From the NCBI RefSeq assembly GCF_003334355.1, contig NZ_QOWP01000001.1: a stretch of 64,000 bases of DNA. One strand, 5' to 3'. Below, piece by piece: positions 20,045-23,000 of this stretch (positions are counted from its first letter, which is position 1; each line of letters opens with the position of its first letter). Made by a program: the position numbers. This DNA is from Escherichia coli. GTDB lineage: Bacteria; Pseudomonadota; Gammaproteobacteria; Enterobacterales; Enterobacteriaceae.

Positions 20045-23000
20045 TTAATGGCACGTTTTACCCGTGCGCATCGCATCTGGTGCTTACTCGCCCTTTTTCG
20101 CCGCCTGAATATACAGCATTTCCAGCGCCAGCGTTGCCGCTGCCAGAGCAGTGATTTCCGACTGATCGTATGCCGGAGCCACTTCCACTACGTCCATCCC
20201 AACAATGTTGAGATCTTTCAGGCCGCGTACCAGTTTAATAGCGCGATCGGAGGTCAGGCCGCCAATCACTGGCGTACCGGTGCCTGGTGCAAAAGCAGGA
20301 TCCAGGCAGTCGATATCAAAAGTCAGGTAAACCGGCATATCACCCACAATCTGTTTCACTTGGGCGATAACGTCATCCACGCTGCGATCGTTCACCTGGC
20401 AGGCGTCCAGCACGGTAAAGCCGTTGTCTTTATCAAACTCGGTACGAATACCAATCTGCACGGAATGATTCGGGTCGATCAGACCTTCTTTCGGCGCGGT
20501 ATAGAACATAGTGCCGTGGTCAAATTCACAACCGTTCGCATAGGTATCGGTGTGGGCGTCAAAGTGTACCAGCGCCATTTTGCCGAAATGCTTCGCATGA
20601 GCACGCAGCAGCGGCAGCGTAACAAAGTGGTCACCACCGAAAGAGAGCATACGCTTACCGGCAGCCAGCAGCTTCTCGGCGTGCGCCTGCAGCTTTTCGC
20701 TCATCTCACGGGCATCGCCAAAGGCATATACCAGATCGCCGCAGTCCACGACGTTCAGACGCTCACGCATGTCGAAATTCCACGGGAAGCGGTTGTGTTC
20801 CCAGGCCAGATTCGTCGAAACCTGACGGATCGCTGCCGGACCGTGGCGACCACCCGCACGACCAGAAGTGGCCATATCGAACGGCACGCCAGTAATCACC
20901 CAGTCTGCATCGCTGTCATACGGCTGGAAGTTCATCGGCAGGCGTAAAAAACCAAAGGCATTGGAAACCAGTGAGTTATCGTATTGATGACCTAAGGTGC
21001 TCATGGATGGACTCCTATTACAAAGTCGATATAAAAAAACCCTTCCGCGTCGTTAGGCCCGACGAGGAAGGGTTGGATTTGTCACAATAAATTGTGGCGG
21101 ATTATCACCGCTAAATTAAGCGGATTCAAGTAACACAGGACTTACTCATCTTCAAGATAAGTATAACCGTACAAACCTGCCTCGAACTCTTCAAGGAACT
21201 GTTGTTGCAGTTCAGCATCAAGATCGGTTTTCTTCACTTGATCGCGGAACTGGGTTAACAGCGTTTTCGGATCGAGCTGTACATATTGCAGCATGTCCGC
21301 CACGGTATCGCCTTCGTCAGACAGTTCTACTTCTACGCTACCGTCAGGGAAGACGAACACGTCAACCGCTTCGGTATCACCGAACAGGTTGTGCATGTTG
21401 CCGAGGATCTCCTGATATGCGCCGACCATAAAGAAACCGAGCATCGGCGGATTCTCTGGATCGTACTCCGGCATTGGCATTGTCGTGGCAATACCGTCAC
21501 CATCAATATAGTGGTCGATAGCACCGTCAGAGTCACAGGTAATATCCAGCAGCACAGCGCGACGTTCCGGCACTTGATCCAGCCCTTCCAGCGGCAGAAC
21601 CGGGAACAACTGGTCGATCCCCCATGCGTCCGGCATCGACTGGAACAGCGAGAAGTTGACGTACATTTTGTCCGCCATACGTTCCTGCAGCTCGTCGATA
21701 ATCGGACGATGAGCACGGTTTTGCGGATCCAGCTGCTTTTGCACTTCATGGCACATGCTCAAATAAAGCTGCTCAGCCCATGCACGTTCTTGCAGGCTAA
21801 AGGTGCCGGAAGAGTAGCCGATATGAATGTCGTGCAGATCCATCTGACTGTCGTGTAACCATTCACGCAGAGAACGGCGAGTTCCCGGTTCGTGCATCTC
21901 CTGCCAGGTTTCCCACATGCTTTGCAGCGCGCGCGGCGCATCTTCTGCAGGCGCGGTCGGCACCGTGTATTCGTTACGTTCCACGCCGATGATATTAGAC
22001 ACCAGCACGGTGTGATGCGCAGTCACCGCACGACCCGATTCGGTGATTACCGTCGGATGCGGCAGACCGTTTTCTTCACACGCATCACCAATCGCCCAGA
22101 TGATGTTGTTGGCATATTCATTGAGGCCGTAGTTTACGGAGCAGTCAGACTGCGAACGGGTGCCTTCATAGTCCACGCCCAGACCGCCGCCGACGTCGAA
22201 GCACTGAATATTGACGCCCAGCTTGTGCAGTTCCACATAGAAACGCGCCGATTCACGAACGCCTGTGGCGATATCGCGAATATTCGCCATCTGCGAACCG
22301 AGGTGGAAGTGCAGTAGTTGCAGGCTGTCGAGACGCCCGGCTTCACGCAGGGTTTCAACCAGTTGCAGTACCTGAGTCGCAGCCAGGCCGAACTTCGATT
22401 TTTCCCCGCCGGAGGACTGCCATTTACCCGAGCCCTGCGAAGCCAGACGTGCACGCACGCCCAGACGAGGAACGACATTCAGACGTTCTGCTTCATCCAG
22501 CACAATGGCGATTTCTGACATCTTCTCAATGACCAGGTAGACCTTGTGGCCCATCTTCTCGCCAATTAATGCCAGGCGGATATATTCGCGGTCTTTATAA
22601 CCGTTGCAGACGATGACGCTACGGGTCATGCCAGCATGTGCCAGCACCGCCATCAACTCTGCTTTCGAGCCTGCTTCCAGTCCCAGCGGTTCGCCCGAAT
22701 GAATCAGGGACTCAATCACGCGGCGGTGCTGGTTAACTTTGATCGGATAAACAAGGAAGTAATCGCCGTTATAGCCGTAGGATTCCCGCGCACGTTTGAA
22801 CGCGGCGTTAATGGAACGCAAACGGTGCTGCAGGATCTGTGGGAAACAGAACAGTGCAGGCAGACGCTGACCCTGTGCTTCACGAGTTTTCACTAACTGC
22901 GCGAGATCGACGCGAGCTTCCGGGACGTCCGGGTCCGGGCACACGCTGATGTGGCCCAGCTCGTTAACGTCATAGTAGTTATTGCCCCACCAGGCAATAT

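Follow-up and report, generated by a model that had tools for sequence, protein, structure and literature searches.

The rplL-rpoB attenuator is a partial terminator that lies within an operon and is paired with internal promoters. In the trpL, thrL, hisL and pheL leaders, an intrinsic terminator occupies a promoter-proximal position ahead of biosynthetic genes, and riboswitch expression platforms include small hairpin types such as guanidine-II and guanidine-IV. Putrescine is made from arginine by speA and speB, and the hairpin that lies between these two genes in Escherichia coli can be set against each of these systems. Like rplL-rpoB, it would uncouple the expression of co-oriented, functionally linked genes while allowing read-through. 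Unlike in rplL-rpoB, the internal promoters of speB lie upstream of the terminator and would hence be attenuated too. The hairpin also resembles the amino acid leaders: both place an intrinsic terminator close to the promoter, within the leader of a biosynthetic gene, and both are conserved among enterics. However, the speB leader has no leader ORF, antiterminator or pause hairpin, and only about 3-20 nt precede its terminator.

The canonical Rho-independent terminators of E. coli share with this element a GC-rich hairpin followed by a 7-U tract, pairing between upstream A's and the initial U's, and an RNA 3′ end, here 6 nt into the tract. The speB hairpin differs from them in lying downstream of its own gene's promoters rather than closing a transcription unit, and in that its sequence, beyond its structure, is near-constant across families. 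As in guanidine riboswitches, there are conserved nucleotides in the terminator hairpin and the substrate of the downstream gene bears a guanidinium group, but this is a resemblance only: the speB hairpin has no aptamer, no partner hairpin and no Rfam match (E ≤ 1), and its loop is not universally conserved. The speB-leader 3′ end belongs to the Term-seq catalogue of 3′ ends in 5′ UTRs, some of which yield regulatory 5′-UTR fragments (Adams et al. 2021, eLife, PMC7815308). In our view the hairpin likely functions as a Rho-independent terminator within a conserved speB regulatory unit, serving as both insulator and leader attenuator.

The speA-speB locus and its hairpin

The window, a 64,000-nucleotide stretch of E. 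coli DNA (contig NZ_QOWP01000001.1), has the K-12-type gene order tkt-loiP-speB-speA-metK in this region, and DH1 and other strains are 100% identical to this stretch. The present strain carries the short form of the locus, in which speA is directly upstream of the speB leader. Long-form strains have a lipoprotein gene between speA and speB; it has no match in Pfam and none of significance in NCBIfam. In these strains speA has its own separate terminator, and the lipoprotein gene stop codon lies 65 nt before the hairpin. The features of the locus are as follows.

20084..21004, minus strand: speB (agmatinase, 306 aa), the gene under leader control; NCBIfam NF002564, 522 bits, and RefSeq annotation
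21012..21016, minus strand: speB Shine-Dalgarno sequence AGGAG, 7 nt 5′ of the ATG, read from the sequence
21033..21039, minus strand: U-tract of 7 U, read from the sequence, with a mapped RNA 3′ end at 21034
21038..21074, minus strand: terminator stem-loop, from the fold, the pairing in 62 distinct sequences and a covariance model
21101..21129, minus strand: P2, the intergenic speB promoter, from a promoter scan, conservation and a Cappable-seq start in EDL933
21142..23118, minus strand: speA (biosynthetic arginine decarboxylase), NCBIfam NF003763, 936 bits; 1,977 nt as in the RefSeq annotation
21153..21165, minus strand: P1, a speB promoter inside the 3′ end of speA, from the RegulonDB distance, with hexamer and spacing read from the sequence

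The speA stop codon occupies 21144..21142 and the speB ATG is at 21004. A first-pass annotation had noticed an intrinsic-terminator-like hairpin on the coding strand between the two genes, and its anatomy, stability, mapped 3′ end and conservation all bear this out. The spacings estimated at the time, about 70 nt and about 30 nt, were close to the actual values: 67 nt lie between the speA stop and the hairpin, and the U-run ends 28 nt short of the speB ATG. The stem itself had been undercounted, at 7+5 bp instead of 9+5 bp. The 5′ arm AACCCUUCC (21074..21066) and the 3′ arm GGAAGGGUU (21046..21038) form the outer stem, which is interrupted by a 1×1 U·C mismatch before the inner stem, CGUCG/CGACG, closes a 7-nt loop (GGCCUAA). 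The tract and the stem overlap by two bases: the first two U (21039 and 21038) close the 3′ side of the stem by pairing with AA at its base. Relative to the speB ATG, the hairpin spans -70 to -34.

The 14-bp hairpin has a minimum free energy (MFE) of -24.4 kcal/mol, compared with a mean of -13.3 for shuffled sequences (z = -3.91), and none of the 200 shuffles folded as well. It is also the MFE element in a fold of the whole intergenic region and in folds from either candidate start site. The element shows two hallmarks of an intrinsic terminator: a stable GC-rich stem-loop running directly into 7 U, and an in vivo 3′ end in the U-tract. An automated terminator scan of the window missed it only because of the internal stem mismatch. 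Stability of -24 kcal/mol combined with a perfect U-tract suggests very efficient termination, an awkward property should the whole of speB expression have to pass through the hairpin.

Start sites, the RNA 3′ end and read-through

RegulonDB 10.5 gives a distance of 149 from the K-12 speB start codon to the transcription start site (quoted in Table S5, PMC10469882). This corresponds to a start G at 21153, served by a -10 element TATACT at 21165..21160 and a weak -35 (P1). The promoter scan identified P2 closer to the gene, with a -35 TTGAAT (21129..21124), a 17-nt spacer and a -10 GATAAT (21106..21101). Its predicted start, at about 21095-21093, is roughly 20 nt 5′ of the hairpin. In EDL933, Cappable-seq places a start 91 nt upstream of speB, exactly the seventh nucleotide after the conserved GATAAT in the long-form sequence. 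From this start site mapped in EDL933, we infer that P2 is active in K-12.

The hairpin thus lies between the start sites (-149 and -91) and the speB start codon, the position expected of an attenuator. We ruled out a promoter downstream of it because just 28 nt are available between the end of the U-run and the ATG, and these carry the Shine-Dalgarno sequence. With both mapped start sites upstream of the hairpin, every speB transcript must therefore read through the terminator, which is part of the leader common to all of them. The first-pass annotation had argued that a terminator here would leave speB dependent either on its own promoter inside speA or on regulated anti-termination. speB does have start sites of its own, and the RegulonDB start (-149, 21153) falls within the last speA codons, as had been predicted. 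The idea that such a promoter is an alternative to read-through is not supported, as the -149 and -91 starts are both 5′ of the hairpin. The terminator would attenuate read-through from speA and P1 and P2 transcripts as well.

Uniform coverage with no 3′ ends at the hairpin had been named as the outcome that would speak against termination. Instead, Term-seq maps a 3′ end to MG1655 3083827(-), which is window position 21034, the sixth U of the 7-U run and 30 nt 5′ of the speB start codon (Adams et al. 2021, PMC7815308, Supplementary files 1 and 3). It has a mean of 31,650 reads and is classified as 'orphan, upstream ORF -30 speB' (PMC7815308). Of three growth conditions, M63 glucose alone has it in the curated list, and the LB lists lack it (PMC7815308). 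This difference in listing could reflect expression level or calling thresholds. The main text of the study does not contain the word 'speB' or discuss this 3′ end (PMC7815308). Term-seq gives the same signal whether transcription terminates or a longer RNA is trimmed from its 3′ end as far as a stable hairpin; the end at 21034 presumably arises from termination. The supplements of Ettwiller 2016, Yan 2018, the Rend-seq annotation paper, Dar & Sorek 2018, Conway 2014 and Kim 2012 yielded no useful K-12 start site or further 3′-end data, and a text search of the literature on the speB promoter, speA-speB and premature terminators found no discussion of the speB-leader hairpin.

We propose a unit made up of a promoter, about 20 nt, the terminator, about 25-45 nt, the Shine-Dalgarno sequence and speB. 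The hairpin would be transcribed from all three sources: the speA promoter, P1 (-149) and P2 (about -91). A fraction of the transcripts would stop in the U-tract at -30, supplying the 3′ end of the speA mRNA in a short-form strain and yielding a product of about 60 nt from P2. The remaining transcripts would read through, allowing SpeB to be translated. The element would then have two jobs, shielding speB from upstream transcription and setting speB output as a leader attenuator. This explanation builds on the structure, the 3′ end found in vivo, the position of the start sites 5′ of the hairpin and the purifying selection on the sense-strand RNA; termination is presumably partial, and its efficiency presumably matters or is modulated. 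Overall, the most likely role is that of a leader attenuator which at the same time shields speB from transcription further upstream. Since the hairpin lies 3′ of the speB promoters and has hardly changed among enterics, it is probably a built-in brake on speB expression.

Distribution and conservation of the unit

The promoter-hairpin-U-tract unit is found in all 5,426 of 5,426 complete E. coli genomes, at one place in each, and also in Salmonella, Pantoea, Erwinia, Tatumella, Edwardsiella and Budvicia. The sampled Morganellaceae (Morganella, Providencia and Photorhabdus) lack the hairpin unit, as do Sodalis and Acerihabitans, where the speA-speB gap is 13 nt; the sample excludes Yersiniaceae and Pectobacteriaceae proper. 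The element is always immediately upstream of speB and nowhere else. In a metagenome scan, every match that could be checked, that is, with outer arms present and enough downstream contig sequence, was upstream of a speB homologue. A REP/BIME element or other dispersed repeat was rejected, given exactly one copy per genome in 5,426 genomes. With a mapped 3′ end, a single copy in all genomes and conservation in several families, the hairpin is clearly more than a chance structure.

What lies upstream of the retained unit varies: speA, the lipoprotein gene or, in Salmonella, an unrelated island with an unrelated hydrolase gene. speA is not the immediate upstream gene in about two-thirds of E. 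coli genomes, nor in Salmonella. The promoter-hairpin unit is kept without speA upstream, and the hairpin therefore belongs to speB, not to speA. This makes it quite improbable that the hairpin is a plain 3′-end terminator or stabilizer of the upstream gene, speA or the lipoprotein gene, bypassed by the speB promoter. Such a function would suit the distances of 67 nt from the speA stop and 65 nt from the lipoprotein gene stop in long-form strains, and the mapped 3′ end could be the terminus of a stable speA mRNA. However, both mapped speB starts are 5′ of the hairpin, and the 28 nt 3′ of its U-run include the Shine-Dalgarno sequence. In addition, speA of long-form strains has a separate terminator, Salmonella retains the hairpin behind the hydrolase gene, and regions directly 3′ of speA are otherwise unconserved.

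To describe the conservation of the unit, we compared 81 Enterobacteriaceae loci. Pairwise identity of the hairpin is 0.93, whereas the four-fold sites of speB reach 0.57 and the spacers on either side about 0.45. The least conserved part of the unit is the single-stranded 5′ leader segment (about 0.47), which varies from about 3 to 20 nt before the hairpin and comes down to a few nucleotides in Tatumella and Pantoea. A TTGAAC-like -35 and a GATAAT separated by 17 nt occur in 77 of the 81 loci, and in promoter-bearing loci the spacing from the -10 to the hairpin CCC is fixed at 28-32 nt. Conservation of the GGCG within TAACGGCG, just 5′ of the -10, matches that of the promoter hexamers. Where Erwinia sequences lack an obvious P2, the stem has an extra mismatch.

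Within the hairpin, the inner stem and the U·C mismatch are invariant in 81 of 81 loci; two loop positions vary, and the loop is replaced in Budvicia. Paired cells amount to 99.2% across 62 distinct hairpin sequences. One stem pair covaries between U-A and A-U (44 versus 18 of the 62), and another position is a U-G wobble in 42 of 62, which is valid on the sense strand only. Pairing is likewise preserved by a C-G to U-A change, by G-U wobbles and, in Tatumella, by an outer stem that has been rewritten. The covariance model scores 76.9 bits on the sense strand and 25.8 bits on the antisense strand. As judged from these comparisons, purifying selection acts on the sense-strand RNA. A bidirectional terminator was rejected, since the G-U pairs become A·C mismatches on the opposite strand, with the corresponding loss in score (25.8 versus 76.9 bits).

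The same strand asymmetry bears on a DNA-level reading, to which we give very little credence, in which the palindrome works not as an RNA structure but as the operator of a dimeric transcription factor, providing a roadblock or loop anchor. The inner palindrome CGTCG-N7-CGACG is indeed invariant, and the similar TAACGGCG just 5′ of the -10 contains the conserved GGCG. However, the G-U wobbles and the U-A/A-U covariation keep pairing in the sense-strand RNA only, and the antisense model score is about 50 bits lower. A conserved U-tract follows the palindrome with the RNA 3′ end inside it, and Tatumella rewrites half of the palindrome while keeping the pairing. By eye, none of the anticodon-arm, boxA, CsrA, ARG-box, CRP and PurR look-alikes fits the conserved positions.

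P2 together with an intrinsic terminator carrying 7-9 U has the form of an Hfq-type small RNA, and the unit could be an independent gene whose transcript of about 60 nt acts in trans, with read-through into speB secondary. Its own promoter, the usual Hfq-type 3′ module, the abundant 3′ end and conservation regardless of the upstream neighbor fit such a gene. Even so, the sole single-stranded part of the RNA is its least conserved segment, reduced to a few nucleotides in Tatumella and Pantoea, the element is found only immediately upstream of speB, and RefSeq annotates no ncRNA there. The predicted terminated transcript is about 45-50 nt in Erwiniaceae and about 60 nt here. We consider a small RNA gene unlikely.

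Possible control of speB through its leader

The inner stem is more constant in sequence than a generic terminator would require, a point against our leader-attenuator reading. It is possible, if doubtful, that termination is regulated, with a trans-acting factor altering its efficiency and coupling speB expression to the status of the pathway. Either a protein or a small molecule acting on the RNA (agmatine, putrescine or spermidine) could be that factor, and it would recognize the inner stem, the U·C mismatch or the loop. Sequence conservation far above neutral, with the inner stem and mismatch constant in 81 loci, is consistent with this reading. So are the listing of the 3′ end for minimal glucose and not LB, the additional stem mismatch in Erwinia sequences lacking an obvious P2, and the reported influence of agmatine and cAMP on speB.

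Other features of the leader argue against regulation. No competing antiterminator fold appeared in folds of the whole intergenic region or from either start site, and no second conserved hairpin was found; the variable leader before the hairpin has only about 3-20 nt. Transcripts truncated at the loop gave weak pairing of 5-6 bp, inconsistently, with no strong partner for the 5′ arm, and an antiterminator was rejected. A small ORF spanning the hairpin, such as one for a leader peptide, was also rejected: as read from the window sequence, the only open frame has no start codon, and U-run length varies between species, shifting the frame. A search of 19500-24500 against Rfam 15 (E ≤ 1) returned no match except a REP-derived naRNA4 downstream of speB. 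Nor is the loop constant, with two variable positions and a replacement in Budvicia, and the LB/M63 contrast could have the simpler explanations given above. Finally, a finely tuned constitutive terminator under strong purifying selection could give the same conservation. We raise only tentatively the idea that the speB leader hairpin is an undescribed cis-regulatory RNA, whose inner stem and U·C mismatch are read by a specific factor that tunes termination; on this reading the terminated product of about 60 nt might act in trans as well.

Agmatine and cAMP reportedly influence speB, according to work by Szumanski and Boyle in 1992. To our knowledge, no regulator is known for this response, which has been discussed since about 1990. 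If termination is constitutive, the leader attenuator would amount to an ordinary, well-conserved insulating terminator. For metabolic engineering, where the operon status of speAB has recently been treated as uncertain and the 137-bp spacer was replaced to force co-transcription (PMC8674398), the hairpin suggests a handle: removing or weakening it may give more agmatinase. The terminator unit would explain how speB retains its own control when genes insert between speA and speB. A strong, deeply conserved terminator 3′ of the speB promoters offers a concrete site for regulation by agmatine and cAMP, and the cis-regulatory RNA reading, if true, would supply the missing mechanism for the reported influence of agmatine on speB.

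Structure and conservation of the speA-speB spacer hairpin

The window carries the K-12-type tkt-loiP-speB-speA-yqgB-metK locus of E. coli, in a stretch that is 100% identical in DH1 and many further strains. A hairpin with a U-run occupies the 137-bp speA-speB spacer.

Features of the speA-speB region (window coordinates)
21144..21142, minus strand: stop codon of speA, a gene with an NCBIfam equivalog/subfamily model match of 936 bits
21004..20084, minus strand: speB; NCBIfam equivalog/subfamily model match, 522 bits
21074..21033, minus strand: hairpin and U-run, AACCCUUCC-U-CGUCG-GGCCUAA-CGACG-C-GGAAGGGUU-UUUUU
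21153, minus strand: G at the start (-149) of P1, the upstream speB promoter, from the RegulonDB distance placed on the window
21165..21160, minus strand: P1 -10, TATACT, within the final speA codons; the start lies 7 nt after it
21129..21101, minus strand: P2, the intergenic speB promoter, K-12 form TTGAAT-17-GATAAT, from a promoter scan
21081-21141 (3066-3990 in comparison locus L001): presence/absence polymorphism, from spacer comparison

The first-pass annotation had placed the hairpin correctly; it lies 67 nt past the speA stop and 28 nt ahead of the speB ATG. Its GC-rich stem is borne out by folding, which gives a slightly longer 9+5 bp in place of 7+5, interrupted by a 1x1 U.C mismatch and capped by a loop of 7 nt. 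The predicted energy is -24.4 kcal/mol against a shuffle mean of -13.3 (z = -3.9; 0/200 shuffles as stable). The same hairpin dominates folds of the entire spacer and those begun at either candidate transcription start, and no competing structure appeared in any of them. A simple terminator scan of the sequence did not call it, because the stem has an internal mismatch. Beyond speB, REP-type repeats lie between speB and loiP (19900-20054), where both strands match naRNA4 (RF02564) below threshold.

We examined 80 Enterobacteriaceae loci, found by scanning one genome per species with protein anchors, from genera including Escherichia, Citrobacter, Klebsiella, Enterobacter, Kluyvera, Lelliottia, Raoultella, Cedecea, Pluralibacter, Atlantibacter and Trabulsiella. 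All 80 contain the hairpin. Across 62 distinct hairpin sequences, 99.2% of cells are paired, and the figure falls to 38-60% once the 3' partner is shifted by 1-3 columns. One stem pair switches between U-A and A-U (44 vs 18) and is never unpaired; a C-G pair becomes U-A in one sequence. The inner stem CGUCG/CGACG is invariant in this alignment, and the U.C mismatch is altered only in L027, to U.U. Mean pairwise identity is 0.93 in the stem-loop, compared with 0.57 over 122 four-fold degenerate positions of speB and ~0.45 in adjoining spacers. At another pair, 42 sequences have U-G, which can form only on the speB-sense RNA; that the conserved element is a DNA operator is a less likely reading. 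Among complete E. coli genomes, the hairpin occurs exactly once in each (5,426/5,426) and is unannotated.

Transcription starts and an RNA 3' end at the hairpin

Published speB start-codon-to-TSS distances are 149 in K-12 (from RegulonDB 10.5) and 91 in EDL933 (that study's Cappable-seq data; Table S5, PMC10469882). The first places P1 in the last speA codons, as the first-pass annotation had supposed for a speB promoter. On EDL933-type sequence, position -91 falls 7 nt past the GATAAT of a TTGATG-17-GATAAT promoter. We infer P2 activity in K-12 itself. A TTGAAC-like -35, 17-nt spacer and GATAAT are shared by 77 of 81 loci, and 28-32 nt of variable sequence separate the -10 from the stem CCC. 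The hairpin lies downstream of both starts, and only 28 nt, including an AGGAG Shine-Dalgarno, separate the U-run from the ATG. Any speB transcript must therefore read through it. The proposal that speB relies on promoters of its own thus stands insofar as these starts exist, but they precede the hairpin and do not bypass it. That the element is a trans-acting small RNA is less likely than a role in this leader.

Several further features surround P2. GGCG directly 5' of the GATAAT -10 (21107-21112; equivalent in 75 loci) is conserved like the promoter hexamers and, with TCGCC just past the -10, forms a short inverted repeat in many species; TAACGGCG beside this -10 resembles TAACGACG of the hairpin. 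TATACT, the -10 of the RegulonDB K-12 start, recurs 4 nt upstream of TTGAAC in 24/75 distinct sequences, even outside speA coding sequence (L021, L027, L031, L045 and others; K-12 equivalent 21144-21167). The K-12 speA 3' end TATACTTATCTTGAAGATGAGTAA resembles TATACTCACTTGAACCCGTATGAATTAA of TATACT-bearing species (e.g. L021, L027, L031, L045).

Curated Term-seq data (Adams et al. 2021, eLife, PMC7815308) list a 3' end at MG1655 3083827 (minus strand), assigned to 'orphan; upstream ORF -30; speB'. It averages 31,650 reads, and its flanking sequence is TGACAAATCCAACCCTTCCTCGTCGGGCCTAACGACGCGGAAGGGTTTTTTTATATCGACT. On the window it falls at 21034, on the sixth of the seven U, the classic intrinsic-terminator position. 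The concern in the first-pass annotation that no 3' ends might map to the hairpin is thereby removed. Only the M63-glucose sheet carries this entry; the LB lists for OD 0.4 and 2.0 jump from 3081656 to 3084813, the speB end being absent, and the main text does not mention speB (PMC7815308). The same study reports a Rho-dependent 3' end 57 nt into speA (window ~23061; MG1655 3085854, minus strand), and ties it to yqgB as upstream ORF, an attenuation site of this pathway that is distinct from the speB one and has already been published.

A promoter-hairpin unit linked to speB

The short, K-12-type spacer is found in 1,865 of 5,426 complete E. coli genomes; elsewhere the match breaks at 21081/21082. 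In TUM1880, the long-form genome examined, the break is a ~870-bp insertion between speA and P2 containing a dedicated speA terminator, an AT-rich promoter region and a gene for a 243-aa lipoprotein (lipobox LAGC; no Pfam match and no significant NCBIfam match). Some Citrobacter, Kluyvera, Klebsiella and Enterobacter species carry this gene there too. Salmonella has an unrelated island, an alpha/beta-hydrolase gene immediately preceding the unit, and divergent promoter hexamers (TTCAAT-17-TAAACT). In all these contexts the hairpin-speB arrangement is intact, with a promoter-like element just 5' of the hairpin; the unit is a property of speB, not speA.

P2 itself is of two sequence types, and which one occurs tracks the lipoprotein gene across genera (21101-21129 vs L001 3946-3980; L014, L019, L025, L038, L056), a pattern that suggests either whole-cassette exchange between genera or an old polymorphism. 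The type accompanying the gene reads ...TTTTAAGGCGATAATTA..., and the K-12 short form resembles P2 of gene-less Kluyvera and Citrobacter species. The Enterobacter/Klebsiella group has a conserved ~15-nt insert, CATCTGTTTTTAATGTATCGAC, between U-tract and speB Shine-Dalgarno, and ATCGAC recurs close to that Shine-Dalgarno in most genera.

A covariance model built from the hairpin alignment has one match in the window (76.9 bits sense vs 25.8 antisense) and also matches Salmonella, Apirhabdus, Pantoea ananatis, Edwardsiella, Budvicia (37 bits) and Tatumella (37 bits). Budvicia keeps both stems with a replaced loop; in Tatumella the outer stem is rewritten (CCCUUGUG/CACAAGGG) and the mismatch shifted, with pairing retained. 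The speB upstream regions of Morganella, Providencia, Photorhabdus, Sodalis and Acerihabitans gave no match to the model. The 13-nt speA-speB spacer of the last two indicates translational coupling. Morganellaceae spacers contain unrelated small hairpins, e.g. AAAUGGGGUUAUCUCAGAAAUACCCCAUUU (Photorhabdus L213 2385-2435; Morganella L084 2940-2975), which may be non-homologous analogues.

A metagenome scan with the hairpin core as pattern returned 120 loci, a pattern-biased set uninformative on variation within the core. Every match bearing the outer arms and enough downstream sequence is followed 90-100 nt further on by a speB homologue; the loci at ~80% SpeB identity are Pantoea and Erwinia. 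In Erwiniaceae, just 9-12 nt separate the -10 from the stem, which would put the hairpin at the extreme start of RNA made from P2. An obvious P2 is missing from three Erwinia-type sequences, whose outer stem contains an additional U.C mismatch. Between the terminator and the Shine-Dalgarno of speB, Pantoea (L095, L099, L211) has a second GC-rich hairpin that lacks a U-tract, e.g. GCGGGCCUGGCCCG.

Probable termination in the speB leader

Parts of this picture are on record: the 3' end is a row of a published supplementary table (PMC7815308), the speB promoters are in RegulonDB, and a 1990 sequence paper may already have noted the hairpin. As late as 2021, an engineering paper regarded the 137-bp spacer as unsettled (PMC8674398). 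In the literature we found no description of the terminator lying downstream of the speB promoters, of promoter, hairpin and U-tract as one unit conserved in at least four enterobacterial families, or of that unit travelling with speB.

Folding the leader transcripts revealed no antiterminator, and we found no leader ORF and no Rfam match. The hairpin thus falls outside the leader-peptide attenuators, which have a leader ORF and antiterminator, and outside the riboswitch families. Agmatine and cAMP reportedly influence speB expression. Because sequence beyond structure is tightly held and a strong terminator must be read through, there is room for a specific regulatory RNA, an attenuator modulated by a factor. 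The M63-only 3' end and the reported agmatine and cAMP effects are compatible with this but do not prove it, and we consider it rather unlikely.

That the element is a leader or intra-operon intrinsic terminator is well supported, and the best-supported reading of the hairpin is a Rho-independent terminator in the common speB leader. As such, it would end transcripts of the upstream gene and terminate part of those started at the speB promoters, and would thereby both insulate and attenuate speB.
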